Shown one piece after another: positions 16,863 to 43,900 of a stretch of 43,900 nt of DNA. Location of the stretch: sequence record NC_028901.1. One strand, 5' to 3'. The stretch's first letter is position 1; each line of letters starts with the position of its first letter. A model generated the notes under the pieces. It was not told the DNA's origin, ran no database searches, and worked only from the letters and a program-made list of their open reading frames with translations. The position numbers and the translations under genes are program-made. The stretch is from Escherichia phage slur05.

Positions 16863-16926
16863 TATGCAGTCCCCTTTTTTATGCAGTTGCCGATGGATAT
16901 TGTATCAGCTATTTCAAAACAAACCT

Positions 16927-17246
16927 TATTCAGTCTCAGACGAGGGGGGCCACTGACCCCCGTCTAGTCTGAAAGACTGGGGTGCTGTCCCGCTGTCCCG
17001 ATCGGCTGAAAACCGCGGCAGCACTGGCGGGGACGGGGTGCTGTCCCGCTTTGTCCCGCCTCTTGTTTGTCCCGCTTTCTGTCCCGTTTGTTTTATGCAC
17101 GAAAACCGAATACGTATGCACTTTTGTGGGGTGGGACAAAACGGGACGTCCCGCTTGTCCCGCTTTTTATTATGCAATGGAAGTGAGTAGGTATGCAGTT
17201 TCACAGGGGTGGGACAAAACGGGACGTCCCGCCTGTCCCGCTTCAT
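16927..17246. repeat. Structured non-coding repeat element, copy A: hairpin, GTCCCGC iterons and two GGGACGTCCC palindromes
   Basis: Core 16927-17100 is ~85% identical to 33700-33870; bulged stem-loop AGACGAGGGGGGCC...CCCCCGTCT, at least 6 GTCCCGC iterons, sub-repeat GGGTGGGACAAAACGGGACGTCCCGCNTGTCCCGCTT at 17127-17167 and 17207-17245. Confidence 0.8.
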
Positions 17247-17937
17247 TATGCGGGGTTCTGCTGCGCCATCTCATCAAGCGCGATTCGTTCCATTAGCTTG
17301 ATATCTTTAAACGCACGCTGCTCGTTTTCGATACCGTGCATCTTAAATAACCACTCCAGCACGCCGTAGTCGATGCCGTATGCGCCACCAAATCCGGTGC
17401 GCCATTGCGTGGCGCAATCTGTGAAGACTGCGACTATCTTCGCGTTGTCAGGCCACAGCGCAACAGGTGGACAAACATCTTCGGGGGCCGCACCCCATAA
17501 ACTTGCGGCTAAATCTTCGGAGGGTGGCGGCGGGCCATAAAAGCGTCGCGCCGCCTCAATTAGTTTTTTTCACGCAACCCCATCAGTTCGAGATAGTACG
17601 ACGTGTGGAACACACCGAACGCGCGTGGATAGTTGACCACCAGGCGGCGGACGTTCTCCGCGTTAAATTCGTCCGGCAGATTCCAGCCTTCTGCGACGTG
17701 CATGATGGCCTCGACCATAACGTTAAAGCCGTCCGGGTCATTGTCGTCATATTCCGACAACTTGCGTTCGGTGTCCTGCATGGTCTGCGAAAATTCGTCG
17801 ATAGGGCGGTGGCGGACGGTGAAAGTCATCTTCCCCGGCTCGTTCTCACCAGGGCGCGGGATCTCAATCGGCAGCTTAAAGGTCGGCTTAGGGTCAAGTG
17901 TAAATAGTGGTGCTTTAGCCATTGTAGTATTCTCCAA
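17247..17937 (-). CDS. Tail assembly chaperone G-T fusion made by -1 frameshift
   Basis: Minus-strand heptamer A_AAA_AAC (plus 17563-17569) at the end of the G-like ORF; the -1 frame stays open for ~105 codons (LIEAARRFYGPPPPSEDL...QQNPA) to a stop at 17247-17249. Confidence 0.6.
17560..17922 (-). CDS. Tail assembly chaperone (lambda G-like)
   Basis: Start refined to MAKAPLF with GGAGA RBS; acidic ~120 aa protein; ends at slippery heptamer A AAA AAC next to its stop codon. Confidence 0.65.
   Translation of the reverse strand: MAKAPLFTLDPKPTFKLPIEIPRPGENEPGKMTFTVRHRPIDEFSQTMQDTERKLSEYDDNDPDGFNVMVEAIMHVAEGWNLPDEFNAENVRRLVVNYPRAFGVFHTSYYLELMGLREKN
17563..17569 (-). other. Programmed -1 ribosomal frameshift site (A AAA AAC) for the G-T chaperone
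   Basis: Slippery heptamer in the last codons of the G-like ORF with an open -1 frame downstream (17247-17562). Confidence 0.6.
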
Positions 17938-19794: not shown

Positions 19795-20148
19795 TTAGCC
19801 CCTTAGCTGTAGTTGAAACAGCATGGTAGTGCCAGCCGGTTGCAGTGGGTTCGGGTTGACTACCCGGTAGTCAGTGCCGTTCAGGTTAACAAGGTCGCCC
19901 ACCCGCAATTGCTCAACCGCCCGACATAAAAACTTCACATCACCGGCAACGATACGCGTTCCGTCGATCTCGCTAGGCTTGTACTCCTCGCGAAGACCGA
20001 TGACGTCAAACGACGTTGGCGGGATTACCACTTCGTCGCCGTCTACACGGTCAACCGATCCCGGACGCGTAACCGTAACGGTCATGCCGAATTTTTTAAT
20101 CAGCGGATTCACTTTCCGCTTTAATCCTGCGTAATTAAAGCCCGCCAT
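19795..20148 (-). CDS. Head-tail adaptor / head closure protein (putative)
   Basis: 117 aa, position between connector and tail-completion genes. Confidence 0.4.
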   Translation of the reverse strand: MAGFNYAGLKRKVNPLIKKFGMTVTVTRPGSVDRVDGDEVVIPPTSFDVIGLREEYKPSEIDGTRIVAGDVKFLCRAVEQLRVGDLVNLNGTDYRVVNPNPLQPAGTTMLFQLQLRG

Positions 20149-20254
20149 CTTCTTCGCTCTCCTGTGCCGGTTGTACTGGTTCTGGCTCCGGTTCTTGTTC
20201 CGGCGGCTGTTTAGTGTTGGCGGCGATTATCGCCGCGAGTAATGCAGGATTCAT
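20135..20254 (-). CDS. Small Pro/Glu-rich protein (39 aa), hypothetical
   Basis: ATG 4 nt after a GGGGG SD; MNPALLAAIIAANTKQPPEQEPEPEPVQPAQESEEDGGL; overlaps the downstream gene start by 14 nt. Confidence 0.3.
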   Translation of the reverse strand: MNPALLAAIIAANTKQPPEQEPEPEPVQPAQESEEDGGL

Positions 20255-32991: not shown

Positions 32992-33151
32992 TTGCTCAGT
33001 CTCCAGTGTTTGCCTACCCGCTCAACGGCGGGCTTCCGGCGTAATGTAATACGAATTCCCATTGGTTGCAAGGAAGTCCGCACCCTGAAATCGTGTTGCG
33101 CTGCGAACTGGTGCAAGTAGCGAGTCTGCGTCAACGGCTCATTTTGGCCCC

Positions 33152-33478
33152 TTATTTCGCAAGCTGGGCGAATAGTTCACGCTGGGCTTTAATCCGGGCG
33201 ACGTTTGTCACTGCCGTCTCGCCGATCCCGAAGCGATACGCAAGGCGCTCACGGGCAAATGCAAGCGCGTAGTCCTGGATTGCGTTCGCCAGTGGCTGGA
33301 TCTCCGCCATCGTGTCGAAGCGGCGCTCCAGCATACAAGCGATGGCCTGCTGCGTGACGCGAACAACGGACCACGCTGCCGATAGTCTTTCGACCGCTTC
33401 CGCTCCTTCACCGGCGAACTCCGCCGCTTCTTGTGCCGCCGCCATAGCCATTGCGTAATTCCAGATAATCGCTTTCAT
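33152..33478 (-). CDS. Hypothetical protein (108 aa)
   Basis: Ala-rich helical ORF, first gene downstream of the 33.5-34.0 kb regulatory region. Confidence 0.4.
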   Translation of the reverse strand: MKAIIWNYAMAMAAAQEAAEFAGEGAEAVERLSAAWSVVRVTQQAIACMLERRFDTMAEIQPLANAIQDYALAFARERLAYRFGIGETAVTNVARIKAQRELFAQLAK

Positions 33479-33699
33479 TGTTCAGTCCTCATGTTGGGGT
33501 GCAACCAATATAGCAAGGTGCCAGGCGGAACGCAACCAATATTAATCACGCGCATGAAAAAGTTGATCGCTATCTGCTGTGACTGCAAACCGCATTTTTC
33601 ACTTCGCATAATGCAACTCGCATTGGTTGCCTAGTTCATCCGCGACCGCACTTCGCATCATGCTGCCGTGTATTTTGCAATCCCCGGATTTTATTCAGT

Positions 33700-33870
33700 C
33701 TCAGACGAGGGGGGCCGCTGACCCCCGTCTAGTCTGAAAGACTGGGGGTTGTCCCGCCTGTCCCGCTCCTCTCCAGGCCGCGCCATACGGGGCGGGACGG
33801 GGGTGCTGTCCCGCTTTGTCCCGCCCCTTGTTTGTCCCGCTTTCTGTCCCGCTTACTTTATGCAATAAAA
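33700..33870. repeat. Structured non-coding repeat element, copy B
   Basis: Same hairpin and GTCCCGC iteron series as copy A, with inverted GGGAC...GTCCC pairs; lies in the 533 bp non-coding region beside the primase-helicase gene. Confidence 0.8.
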
Positions 33871-33973
33871 CTGCATAACTATTCATTATATTTACACTAC
33901 ACGGCAACCAATACGACCCGATAAAAACACTCAAAATGGCAACCAATGCGCGCAAAATTTAACCTTTTAGCGA

Positions 33974-33989
33974 TATGGGAATTCCCATA
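33974..33989. promoter_or_regulatory. Perfect 16 bp palindrome TATGGGAATTCCCATA flanked by direct repeats
   Basis: Self-complementary 16-mer; GGCAACCAATGCGCGCA occurs on both sides (33938-33954 and 33992-34008); just 3' of the primase-helicase gene. Confidence 0.5.
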
Positions 33990-34012
33990 CCGGCAACCAA
34001 TGCGCGCAGGAT

Positions 34013-36277
34013 TTAATCTTTCAGATCGTCATCGGTCGCAGAAAGCGTGATGGGTATATTCGTTTTAATGACGATATTCGACGACCCATAGATGGCCCCG
34101 GTGTGCGGATCTGTATAAAAACCGAGCACGCCGCGCTCCACCATATCGTCTATTGCCTTCGTCGATGTGCCACCTTTTGCCAATCCCGCCTGGCGGACAA
34201 TTGCCGATTTACTGAATCCGGTATGGTCCGGGTTATCTTCCATCAGTTTTTCCAGTGCCGCATAAAGCACTTTCTCTTTTTCATTGCGCGGTCCTGCGGC
34301 GTTCTCATCCTTAACTGCGGCCTTGCCCGCGGCCTTCGCCTGTTCGATGGCGAACGGTGCCAGGGCGACAGGTACGAGATAAAGAGTCTCGTCGCGTGGC
34401 GTGGATGCAATTGGCTTGACGTCCCAACCGGCAACCACGTCGCCGAAGTCAGGCCCGGTGCTGGTGGACTGGTGTGATTCGAACGCTTCGGACTTGCGGA
34501 GATCCACCTTAACCTTGCACTTGAGCAGGACGAAGCCGCGCGGCGCTTGCTTGATGCCGTTACGCGCCTTTTCGTGATACAGGTTCAATTGGCCCGGCTG
34601 ATTGTCGTCCGGTTGCTCGAGGAAGAACGCAGAATCGACAGCGCCATGCAGCGCGCCGGACCCACGGGGAGATCTGCTGCCGTTTGCACCCTTCGCCGGG
34701 TGGTGGATGACGCCCGCACTGCCGCCTGTATTTTCCGCAATGGCCTTCAGCGCTTTGACCACTTCACCCATATCGCTGGCGTTGTTCTCGTCGAACGGTT
34801 TAGCATCGGCGGACCGCAGCGCAACAGTCTGGTTGAGTGAGTCGAACGCCACCAGGCCAACCGGCTCGCCGTTAGCGGTGCGGTTGATGAAGCTGATAAC
34901 TTCACGCAAGCCGGATTTGCTGGTGATATCCCAGCCGCGTGATTGCAGATCGATAATGTGCAGCTTGTCCAGGTCGTGCTCATATTTAATCTGCAATGCT
35001 TCCTTACGCTGGTTGGAGGCTTCGCCACCTTCCGCGTCGAAATAGAAGCAATGAGACTGGACGACCTTCGCGCCGCCGAACGGAATCCCCGCGGCAACCG
35101 CACCCATTTGCCCCAGCACATAGAACGACTTACCGATGTTCGACTCACCGGCAAGATACCAGGTCGATTTAAAGTTAATCAACCCCTCGATGATCGGGTC
35201 GTGCTTGCTGAACAGTGCAACCGGCTCGTTGTCCAAGTCTGCGTCCGTACATCCGCCGTACTCGTCGCCGTCTCCGACCGCATCAACGATATGCGCATAG
35301 CACGATTCCACTTCCTCGTCGTCCAGTCCTGGGAGGATGGCGGCGATTTGCTTACGTGACATGTTGTGCGGTTCGACGTTCAGGTGGTCCGGGATCCCGA
35401 TAAGACGTAGCGCCAGGTGCTGGTGTCTGTTCAGTTCGGAACAGCACTCGTTGCCGGTGTGCATACACTTGAAACGGATCTCGCCATCCTTAACCATGAT
35501 AGCGGTGGACCCTTCGCCACTATGCAGATGTTCGTTCGGGCACGGCACTTCATAACCGCGACCAGAAGATAACTCCTCGAATCCGGCCTGGAAGCACCAG
35601 TCCAGAATGCCGTCTGCCACTGCGTCGTCGCCATGGGTAAGCTCGCGGCGTACTTCCTCTTTTTCCACTCCCAGCTTATCAGCCAGGCGAAGCAGACGAC
35701 GGACGCGGGCACGTTTGCCGTAGTGACACTTAACAACCGATTGCTGGTGAGGCAGGTACATAAGGCGGTTTGTGTCTTTCGTGCAATCGTCGAAGTCCAC
35801 ATCTGACAGGCCCAGTTGGTGTAATAGTGCATACTGGACGCGGCCCAGGTCTTCAGCCGGTACAGGCTTGTCAGTGAGCACCAGGAAACGAGCGCAACGC
35901 GTGCCACCTTTCAGCGGGTGGCGATCGCCGGTTGTGGTGTGAAATACATGTTCCAGTCCCGCGTCGATGAACGCCTTACGGCAGCGGCGCAGGGTGCGGG
36001 TGTCGGTACGGTCAATATCGAAGAACAGGATCGAGCGATCCACCGCACTGGTCTTGCGGCGTAATCCGTCACTGGTATAAGCCACAATCCCATCAGCCTT
36101 ACGCTTGCGGCGCGCATACTCCGCTTTATCTTCCGTTTTGTTGATATGCACCGAGGAGATTTCTTTCGCATCATTGATAAATTCGAAAAACTCTTCGGTA
36201 GTCATCTGGAAGTTTTCCGCCCTGGCTTTTTCGCCTTTTTTAGCGGGTCGTGTTACAGCGAATTTAATCAAGCTCAT
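34013..36277 (-). CDS. Primase-helicase (primase/prim-pol-like N-terminus plus P-loop helicase)
   Basis: 754 aa; N-terminal Asp-rich motif (LFFDIDRTD), Cys/His cluster (CPNEHLH...C...NECC), Walker A LAGESNIGKS, Walker B-like LVAFDSLNQ, sensor GVIHHPAKG. Confidence 0.7.
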   Translation of the reverse strand: MSLIKFAVTRPAKKGEKARAENFQMTTEEFFEFINDAKEISSVHINKTEDKAEYARRKRKADGIVAYTSDGLRRKTSAVDRSILFFDIDRTDTRTLRRCRKAFIDAGLEHVFHTTTGDRHPLKGGTRCARFLVLTDKPVPAEDLGRVQYALLHQLGLSDVDFDDCTKDTNRLMYLPHQQSVVKCHYGKRARVRRLLRLADKLGVEKEEVRRELTHGDDAVADGILDWCFQAGFEELSSGRGYEVPCPNEHLHSGEGSTAIMVKDGEIRFKCMHTGNECCSELNRHQHLALRLIGIPDHLNVEPHNMSRKQIAAILPGLDDEEVESCYAHIVDAVGDGDEYGGCTDADLDNEPVALFSKHDPIIEGLINFKSTWYLAGESNIGKSFYVLGQMGAVAAGIPFGGAKVVQSHCFYFDAEGGEASNQRKEALQIKYEHDLDKLHIIDLQSRGWDITSKSGLREVISFINRTANGEPVGLVAFDSLNQTVALRSADAKPFDENNASDMGEVVKALKAIAENTGGSAGVIHHPAKGANGSRSPRGSGALHGAVDSAFFLEQPDDNQPGQLNLYHEKARNGIKQAPRGFVLLKCKVKVDLRKSEAFESHQSTSTGPDFGDVVAGWDVKPIASTPRDETLYLVPVALAPFAIEQAKAAGKAAVKDENAAGPRNEKEKVLYAALEKLMEDNPDHTGFSKSAIVRQAGLAKGGTSTKAIDDMVERGVLGFYTDPHTGAIYGSSNIVIKTNIPITLSATDDDLKD

Positions 36278-36287
36278 TGCCGTTGCC

Positions 36288-36617
36288 TTACTTTGAAGTT
36301 TTATTATTGCGTACCCAGGAGCGCACTGTGCTCTGATTAATTCCGGTCAACTCGGCGATCATTGCCCATGACTTTCCCTCATTGCGCAAACGGATAACCT
36401 GCTTTTTGTATTCTTCCATTTCTTCATTGTGTTTTTGCAGCTTGCTTGCTGCCGTGCCGTTGAGCAATTCCAGCTTCGCGGTAAGCTCCTTCTCAGCACG
36501 CGATAATCTGGACACTTCAAATAACAGAGTATCCACCGCATTTGTGTAATACCAGGATTTACCCGCTTCGCCGCGGATTGCATTAGATAACACTTCAATT
36601 GCTTCTTTGATATTCAT
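36288..36617 (-). CDS. HTH DNA-binding protein (putative transcriptional regulator)
   Basis: C-terminal helix-turn-helix (SWAMIAELTGINQSTVRSWV); coiled-coil middle; heads a divergent regulatory region carrying an operator-like palindrome. Confidence 0.55.
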   Translation of the reverse strand: MNIKEAIEVLSNAIRGEAGKSWYYTNAVDTLLFEVSRLSRAEKELTAKLELLNGTAASKLQKHNEEMEEYKKQVIRLRNEGKSWAMIAELTGINQSTVRSWVRNNKTSK

Positions 36618-36793: not shown

Positions 36794-36823
36794 TTGACAC
36801 CCATCCTGCAACCAATCTATCAT
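36794..36823 (+). promoter_or_regulatory. Sigma70-like promoter TTGACA-18-TATCAT for the charged-protein operon
   Basis: Consensus -35 TTGACA 36794-36799, -10 TATCAT 36818-36823; spacer contains TGCAACCAAT. Confidence 0.55.
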
Positions 36824-43713: not shown

Positions 43714-43887
43714 ATGGTTGAAGAAAAACGTTGTAGTAATTGCGGATGCATCAAGCCGCTATCCCAGTTCCACAAGTACACCGGCAAGACTGCGCGAAGT
43801 CCAGACGGTCATCGGGCCGAGTGCAAGTCGTGCCGCAATAAAAAAGAGCGCGAACGGCAGCGCCGCTATCGCGCAGAACAAGAATAA
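43714..43887 (+). CDS. Small zinc-ribbon protein (57 aa)
   Basis: GAGGA RBS; four Cys in CxxC...CxxC arrangement (CSNCGC...CKSC); basic C-terminus. Confidence 0.4.
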   Translation: MVEEKRCSNCGCIKPLSQFHKYTGKTARSPDGHRAECKSCRNKKERERQRRYRAEQE

Positions 43888-43900
43888 TCAATACGGCGGG

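Follow-up and report, generated by a model that had tools for sequence, protein, structure and literature searches.

Escherichia phage slur05 (NC_028901.1) was analyzed as a window of 43,900 nucleotides, to which all phage coordinates below refer. The feature studied here lies inside a non-coding region of approximately 530 bp (33479–34012), directly 3′ of a helicase-primase gene. This region is bounded by the helicase-primase stop codon on one side and by small genes leading to the lysis and structural genes on the other. The helicase-primase gene (34013–36277, minus strand) encodes a protein of 754 amino acids with an AAA_25 domain (PHROG 3228). A comparison of this protein with solved structures gave no usable match and no detectable similarity. 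Judging from its sequence, the C-terminal domain may be a winged-helix origin binder. The adjoining gene (36288–36617, minus strand) encodes an HTH protein of 109 amino acids, for which the only Pfam matches are HTH_23 and a sigma-70 region 4-like domain. Other records label this protein as a transposase, as 'DNA recombination nuclease inhibitor gamma', or as hypothetical.

The 501 bases around the feature show 100% identity to Escherichia phage slur06 (LN881731.1, genus Dhillonvirus) and match about 155 related records at 70–96% identity. The window is the reverse complement of the slur06 record and is circularly permuted. The two alignment blocks share 127 bp (window positions 20095–20221), which align to both ends of the record and reflect either terminal redundancy or an overlap left by the assembly of the deposited record.

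The sequence-only reading of this locus had described a perfect 16-bp palindrome, bracketed by two 17-bp direct repeats, at the 3′ end of the helicase-primase gene. These observations are correct. The palindrome TATGGGAATTCCCATA at 33974–33989 is exactly self-complementary, and GGCAACCAATGCGCGCA is found on the plus strand at 33938–33954 and again at 33992–34008. Both elements are longer than first described. The direct repeat extends over 33 nt with 88% identity and a period of 54 (33938–33970 and 33992–34024, plus strand), and its second copy covers the helicase-primase stop codon (34013–34015) and the last three codons of the gene. Because the second copy overruns the 3′ end of the gene, the first copy is a pseudo-copy of that 3′ end. 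The palindrome extends over 22 bp (33971–33992; CGATATGGGAATTCCCATACCG / CGATATGGGAATTCCCATAcCG) around an AATT center. Twenty-one of its 22 positions are symmetric, and the 22-mer is perfect in phages welsh, PNS1, and Teewinot. A full unit (33938–33991) is 54 bp long. It consists of a 32-bp arm, which contains the GCAACCAAT box, TGCGCGCA, and the pseudo-copy of the gene 3′ end, followed by the 22-bp palindrome. Two separate elements, GGCAACCAATGCGCGCAAAATTTAATCTTTTAG and CGATATGGGAATTCCCATATC, are joined in this unit. One and a half such units, belonging to a 54-bp variable-number tandem repeat (VNTR) that starts at the 3′ end of the helicase-primase gene, make up the feature.

When the window was shuffled 200 times, 111 of the shuffles contained a perfect palindrome of at least 16 bp (mean 0.76); taken by itself, the palindrome is therefore not significant. 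It is single-copy within the genome, unlike the GCAACCAAT box and the iterons described below. The repeat arms are significant by themselves, and the significance of the palindrome derives from sequences outside the window. Neither sigma-70 promoters nor intrinsic terminators were detected at the feature in scans of 33100–34200. The stem lacks a following T-run on both strands, and no terminator was found at 33930–34012. A search of 33300–34200 against Rfam 15 gave no credible match; the best was the mir-645 model, which scored 20 bits where the gathering score is 90.

We aligned the region by eye in 13 Dhillonviruses. The palindrome is absent from Haito, JL1, and jat. It occurs once in slur06, welsh, Envy, Shigella 1b, and B2, twice in PNS1, three times in SM_S24, and five times in Teewinot. 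In LM40P1 and Ioannina (most divergent of the 13), the 32-bp arm is duplicated without the palindrome, and the duplication ends in CCATATTG, which resembles a deleted palindrome arm. Judged by match length, among 40 evenly sampled records 19 carry one palindrome, one carries two, two carry at least three, and 16 carry none. The remaining two are of the LM40P1 type, with the 32-bp duplication and no palindrome. The palindrome is missing in approximately 40% of the sampled Dhillonvirus genomes. The C-terminal 100 amino acids of the helicase-primase are alike in phages with and without the palindrome, and its presence or absence cuts across two haplotypes of this C-terminus. No ORF co-varies with the palindrome in a comparison of three genomes that have it and four that do not, and the palindrome-less Haito, JL1, and jat retain an unchanged HTH gene and helicase-primase C-terminus. 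The palindrome array is accessory and dispensable, with a copy number of 0 to 5. Given these copy numbers next to an unchanged C-terminus and gene set, neither the helicase-primase nor the HTH protein (36288–36617), the two binders originally proposed, can depend on it as an obligatory site.

Conservation in relatives had also been proposed as a check. It was carried out, and the answer is divided: within the genus only some members keep the palindrome, yet far beyond the genus it is conserved. Among the Dhillonviruses, the outer right arm of the palindrome drifts (ATATCG, ATACCG, ATAATG, AAAATG) about as fast as the flanks do, and purifying selection on the palindrome is therefore not demonstrated within the genus. 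The left arm and the 16-bp core are retained in every palindrome-bearing phage examined, and in B2 a symmetric double change (GGGGATCCCC) restores a perfect 16-mer.

The box within the arms is an element in its own right. There are 15 copies of GCAACCAAT in the window against 0.45 expected, and no shuffle reached 15. Intergenic sequence makes up 11% of the genome and holds 13 of the 15 copies (P = 3e-11). The copies lie at 2205, 2222, 3880, 6822, 22821, 22834, 33061, 33501, 33532, 33622, 33904, 33939, 33993, 36808, and 43649, and they are often paired, 12–17 bp apart. The copy at 33904–33912 (plus strand) is a third box near the feature, on the origin side, and is conserved in 13 of the 13 phages compared. 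Three further copies lie in the same intergenic region at 33501–33630 (33501 and 33532 on the plus strand, 33622 on the minus strand). The copies that flank the palindrome are conserved in all relatives aligned, and in the divergent phage Ioannina GCAACCAAT is found at orthologous intergenic positions. Near 36808 the box lies between the −35 and −10 hexamers of a divergent early promoter, TTGACA-N18-TATCAT (approximately 36794–36823); elsewhere it directly follows TATAAT-like hexamers. A literature search for GCAACCAAT found nothing relevant. We infer that the arms belong to a separate core system of operator-like boxes for a phage regulator, placed at promoters and at the origin. The 109-residue HTH protein is a candidate binder of this box rather than of the palindrome. 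As in phage operator boxes, the copies are intergenic and paired and overlap promoter hexamers. They differ from such boxes in being asymmetric, in occurring in both orientations relative to genes, and in that three origin-side copies have no good −10 hexamer.

An iteron cluster at 33745–33852 contains six direct copies of TGTCCCGC and one inverted GCGGGAC. The adjacent stretch at 33853–33900 is 77% A+T in a genome of 54.5% G+C and is a candidate DNA-unwinding element. The cluster is contained in a 189-bp element (33691–33877) that is repeated at 16926–17112 with 86% identity. This repeat and two further GGGAC/GTCCCGC units make up a second iteron cluster (16926–17250), which occupies a non-coding gap of approximately 390 bp directly upstream of the tape-measure gene. 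The GC-skew profile is uninformative on the origin, as the direction of transcription dominates it. An iteron-type origin would fit the GTCCCGC cluster and the A+T-rich stretch; the palindrome is unrepeated elsewhere in the genome and dispensable. The segment 33745–33900 is probably a replication origin. In phage P4, octamer iterons in two separated clusters, ori and crr, are bound by the C-terminus of the alpha primase-helicase. The present locus resembles P4 in its large primase-helicase gene, iteron cluster, and A+T-rich stretch, with a second cluster 16.7 kb away. The likeness covers the GTCCCGC iterons and extends to neither the palindrome nor its arms; the present helicase-primase is of the AAA_25 type, and its binding to the iterons is putative.

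The wider identity of the palindrome became clear outside the genus. In 185,579 species, with one genome each (596 Gb), the full palindrome CGATATGGGAATTCCCATATCG has 63 exact matches against approximately 0.03 expected. The hosts of the 22-mer include cyanobacteria, Bacteroidota, Proteobacteria, Chloroflexi, spirochaetes, and Bacillota. In addition, GATATGGGAATTCCCATA is present in more than 120 IMG/VR contigs of 21–66% G+C. Forty-four of the 63 chromosomal 22-mers are inside genes for KilA-N domain proteins (PF04383), where they encode x-D-M-G-I-P-I-S. The other 19 are non-coding, and none of these has a KilA-N gene within 8 kb. The palindrome at 33971–33992 fits a class that we define here as the KilA-N 'G-I-P' palindrome, a two-fold symmetry of 20–28 bp centered on GGRATYCC. 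The Dhillonvirus 22-mer (perfect in the three phages named above, 21/22 in slur06) equals the DMGIPIS variant of these genes, and the alleles GGGAATTCCC and GGGGATTCCC, with AATT and GATT centers, are common to Dhillonviruses and enterobacterial KilA-N genes. The palindrome unit of the Dhillonviruses contains in-frame stops and is not in a KilA-N reading frame; it is a free non-coding copy. There is no resemblance to a KilA-N gene beyond the 22 bp on either side of the phage palindrome. A KilA-N homologue was sought across the window and none was found. A 57-residue ORF (43715–43888), which is called "kilA anti-repressor" in phage Ioannina, has no Pfam match.

Among cultured phages, the palindrome is almost confined to the Dhillonviruses and a few temperate coliphages. 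In lambdoid E. coli prophages, the 22-mer lies approximately 50 bp upstream of hok/sok (hokD), at a junction of mosaic blocks (locus L029, 6600–6621; locus L134, approximately 2800–2822). In one contig (L044) it directly follows a RusA gene, at a distance of 1.2 kb downstream from a homologous AAA_25/PriCT_2 primase-helicase that has an iteron field of its own. At two other loci (L126 and L136) it is read in frame as part of the linker that follows an AAA_24 ATPase domain, 2.4–3 kb from a helicase-primase homologue. In phages other than the Dhillonviruses, isolated copies are found in replication or nin modules. No neighboring gene is common to most of the non-coding copies. Recurrent neighbors are confined to a primase-helicase homologue, seen in 3 of the 31 contexts, and to two ORF families, each of them present at three loci.

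Several of these loci have a structure of their own. A non-coding region of approximately 670 bp (L124, 12276–12950; also L015, L040, L303, and L315) contains ATAAAAACGGGAATTCCCGTTTTTAT and CGATATGGGAATTCCCATATCG 337 bp apart. The sequence between them is G+C-richer and looks structured; Rfam found no family in this region. An intergenic array at L304 (7344–7456) holds five different perfect palindromes of 14–18 bp within 113 bp, centered on GAATTC or AGATCT (for example, AGTCGGAATTCCGACT and ACGCGGAATTCCGCGT); several of these equal possible G-I-P variants. In Tolypothrix (L184, 4447–4484), a perfect palindrome of 38 bp surrounds the same 22-mer (TCCCGTATCGATATGGGAATTCCCATATCGATACGGGA) and overlaps a second GGGAATTCCC dyad. 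A separate AAACGGGAATTCCCGTTT palindrome "family" in 44 viral contigs was discounted, as many of its members are bidirectional terminators with an A-run, a stem, and a T-run, and such sequences are expected to be common anyway.

For the KilA-N genes themselves, we fetched 76 loci (25 distinct sequences) by protein pattern. The palindrome is written in the codons GAT, ATG, GGA or GGG, ATT (rarely ATC), CCC, and ATA, of which GAT, CCC, and ATA are invariant in the 25 distinct genes. At other conserved residues of the KilA-N domain, codon entropy is 0.8–2.2 bits and synonymous variation is saturated. Departures from the central GGA ATT are strongly unequal: GGG ATT, which gives a G-U pair in the sense strand, occurs at 47 loci (10 distinct sequences), as opposed to 2 loci (2 distinct sequences) for GGA ATC, which gives A-C. 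Among 120 more distant KilA-N proteins, the residues that flank G-I-P change in pairs as the DNA dyad demands. The pairs are M or I/I, T/V, V/T, A/A, D or E/S, V/T, and S/D. Palindrome-compatible pairs number 81 of 99 at the inner position and 81 of 99 at the middle position, compared with 42±3.6 and 53±3.0 in shuffles (maxima 57 and 64), although the sequences are related. Eight variant genes, which encode DTGIPVS, EVGIPTS, DAGIPAS, VMGIPIT, SMGIPID, ATGIPVA, ITGIPAI, and DIGIPIS, each have their own near-perfect palindrome of 24–28 bp (for example, CCGAGGTCGGAATTCCGACCTCGG and TTCCGATGCCGGGATCCCGGCATCGGAA). At other pairs, A-C in the sense strand is the more frequent mismatch, with T/A in 8 proteins compared with 3 proteins that have a sense-strand G-T.

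The frozen codons, the paired changes, and the variant dyads together mean that the dyad is a selected nucleic-acid feature of KilA-N genes. On this sequence evidence, canonical KilA-N genes of many phyla carry a 20–28-bp dyad, centered on the G-I-P codons (GGA ATT CCC), that is selected at the DNA level. The compensatory covariation fits a hairpin of RNA or single-stranded DNA equally well as co-evolving protein–DNA pairs. Literature searches on the palindrome, on KilA-N with palindrome, and on KilA-N with EMSA gave nothing relevant, and no description of the dyad turned up in the literature that could be searched. There is no solved KilA-N–DNA complex; the only relatives in the PDB are the APSES domains of yeast Mbp1. 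At two metagenomic loci (L320, 1–326; L325, 1–297), the ORF of an IS1595-family transposase ends at or overlaps the start of the KilA-N gene, an arrangement that suggests mobilization of some KilA-N genes as passengers of IS elements.

Many palindrome-bearing KilA-N proteins also contain a BstA_C domain. An E. coli prophage protein whose gene has the exact palindrome matches the PADLOC model for BstA. Of 5,426 complete E. coli genomes, 137 (2.5%) have the KilA-N + BstA_C gene (product WP_000200358.1), which lies between the prophage replication genes and hok (L328, 4001–4774). BstA, whose DNA-binding domain is KilA-N-like, is an abortive-infection protein of prophages; it accumulates where phage DNA is being replicated and stops replication (PMC8585504). 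It is neutralized by a cognate DNA element, aba, in high copy (Owen et al. 2021, PMC8585504). The aba of prophage BTP1 is 63 bp long, spans the bstA start codon, and has terminal CCCGCC direct repeats that are functionally essential (PMC8585504). Several Dhillonvirus iterons read GTCCCGCC; the resemblance to the CCCGCC of aba is probably a coincidence of six letters.

The palindrome is not the published aba: it has another sequence, it occupies another position in the gene, and the window lacks bstA. The two are alike in being short DNA elements tied to an abortive-infection protein of the KilA-N type, and aba is a precedent for a DNA decoy in defense and counter-defense: it acts as DNA, is effective when a replicating element carries it in many copies, and matches the protein variant to which it belongs. 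They differ in that aba is 63 bp long, lies at the start codon, and is not a palindrome, whereas the present element is a palindrome of 22 bp that lies approximately 60 codons into the domain in KilA-N genes. The element here is also in a virulent phage without bstA, and its function is putative. Centromere arrays offer a second comparison. In sopC of plasmid F, twelve tandem units of 43 bp each have a short inverted repeat that is bound by SopB. The Dhillonvirus array is similar in having tandem units with one palindromic site each, and in such arrays the copy number is variable and largely redundant. It differs in belonging to a virulent phage and in being absent from many members of the genus. 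No partner of the ParB/SopB type was found among the annotated genes or in the five proteins scanned.

Several explanations were weighed against these results. The palindrome and repeats could be bound by the HTH protein or helicase-primase that the phage itself encodes, as part of the origin or of gene regulation. They adjoin the iterons and the A+T-rich stretch and abut the helicase-primase gene, and the flanking GCAACCAAT boxes are conserved in all relatives and look regulatory genome-wide. We consider this explanation improbable for the palindrome, which is missing from Haito, JL1, jat, and about two-fifths of the sampled records while the C-terminus and the HTH gene are unchanged, and which, in contrast to the box and the iterons, has no second copy in the genome. 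What survives of this explanation is the GCAACCAAT arms, not the palindrome. A dimeric binding site had been read from the palindrome-within-repeats geometry. A two-fold-symmetric recognition site is still the best reading of the palindrome, but the composite geometry is a by-product of the 54-bp tandem duplication. The other original suggestion, a cruciform that would mark or regulate the origin by extrusion on supercoiled DNA, is very hard to sustain. The symmetry is perfect and the center is AATT, but stable extrusion in vivo needs longer palindromes or more A+T-rich centers. At 16–22 bp, with a single-stranded DNA hairpin of only −4.8 kcal mol−1 and an element that is dispensable within the genus, extrusion is unlikely. 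A cis-acting hairpin would not have to extrude. In the early helicase-primase transcript it could be a stabilizer of the 3′ end or an RNase III-type processing site, or it could be a single-stranded DNA structure at origin firing, and in KilA-N genes the same stem–loop would throttle expression of a toxic protein. The compensatory changes that keep pairing over 24–28 nt, the excess of GGG ATT (G-U) over GGA ATC (A-C), and the location in the helicase-primase 3′ untranslated region are all in its favor. Selection for structure alone would leave the identical 22-mer in unrelated phages unexplained, however, and the stem has no T-run on either strand, no predicted terminator, no Rfam match, and a weak single-stranded DNA fold (z = −2). 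At other pairs the sense-strand A-C is the more frequent mismatch (8 as opposed to 3 proteins), so the strand bias is inconsistent, which counts against a hairpin. Taken together, we regard the hairpin as unlikely.

The palindrome might instead be a neutral scar, the remnant or junction of an old recombination with KilA-N-bearing DNA, duplicated by slippage together with the adjacent sequence, with no function in the phage and a drifting copy number. Such a scar could arise because palindromes favor template switching and deletion end-points. The range of 0–5 copies, the distribution across flanking haplotypes, and the decay of the outer right arm at about the flank rate are what such a scar would give. 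In the lambdoid prophages, the palindrome lies exactly at the mosaic junction by hok/sok, where other prophages hold a whole KilA-N gene, and the CCATATTG end of the duplication in LM40P1 and Ioannina looks like a deleted palindrome arm. Against it, KilA-N resemblance stops at the 22 bp on both sides. All palindrome-bearing phages examined retain the left arm and the 16-bp core, and the GGGGATCCCC change in B2 restores symmetry. Independent, isolated copies occur in unrelated phages of 21–66% G+C, again in replication modules. We therefore treat a scar as possible, although on the doubtful side. The explanation that we tentatively prefer, and hold with less than even confidence, is that the palindrome is a recognition site of the KilA-N type that the phage has captured and that serves as an accessory DNA decoy or target of variable copy number. 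In its support, the 22-mer is identical in phages and KilA-N genes, both of its alleles recur in the two contexts, the dyads are variant-specific, and the palindrome lies in replication modules. Against it stand the drift of the right arm, the absence of the palindrome from about 40% of the genus, the rarity of the matching host gene, the lack of a KilA-N gene within 8 kb of any of the 19 non-coding chromosomal copies, the difference from the aba of BTP1, and the plausibility of hairpin selection; binding by a KilA-N protein is putative.

In the preferred explanation, the palindrome would be a portable recognition site for a dimeric DNA-binding protein of the KilA-N type. As slur06 has no KilA-N protein, the binder would be supplied in trans by resident prophages, for example as the KilA-N + BstA_C protein. 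The tandem palindromes on the origin side could act as a multicopy decoy or titration site, by analogy with aba and BstA; alternatively, the palindrome may be the site that KilA-N-type proteins target. Copy number of the VNTR would change by recombination or slippage between the 32-bp arms. A broader and rather speculative version is that canonical KilA-N genes, including BstA-like ones, carry within the coding sequence of their DNA-binding domain a co-evolving palindrome for self-recognition or self-immunity, that both virulent and temperate phages have captured matching sites into their replication modules, and that the origin-side array of the Dhillonviruses titrates or evades the protein. 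The 0–5 copies would then be the trace of an arms race.

The original observation is real but was partly misread: the locus is a tandem duplication and not a composite site, and its interest lies in the wider identity of the palindrome. Three look-alike elements, namely a regulatory box, a tandem repeat, and a palindrome, have been separated here, with the box and the iterons as the core and the palindrome array as an accessory. If the palindrome is only a scar or a hairpin, the finding shrinks to an ordinary intergenic VNTR beside an origin. The palindrome also draws attention to a trait of KilA-N genes that seems not to have been described, a dyad held by frozen synonymous sites and paired residue changes across phyla. 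It bears on the questions, posed in PMC8585504, of what KilA-N/BstA-type proteins recognize and how aba-like DNA silences them. The 22-mer, which is common to a defense gene, to prophage replication regions, and to a virulent phage of the same host, would be a direct reagent for binding and plaque assays.
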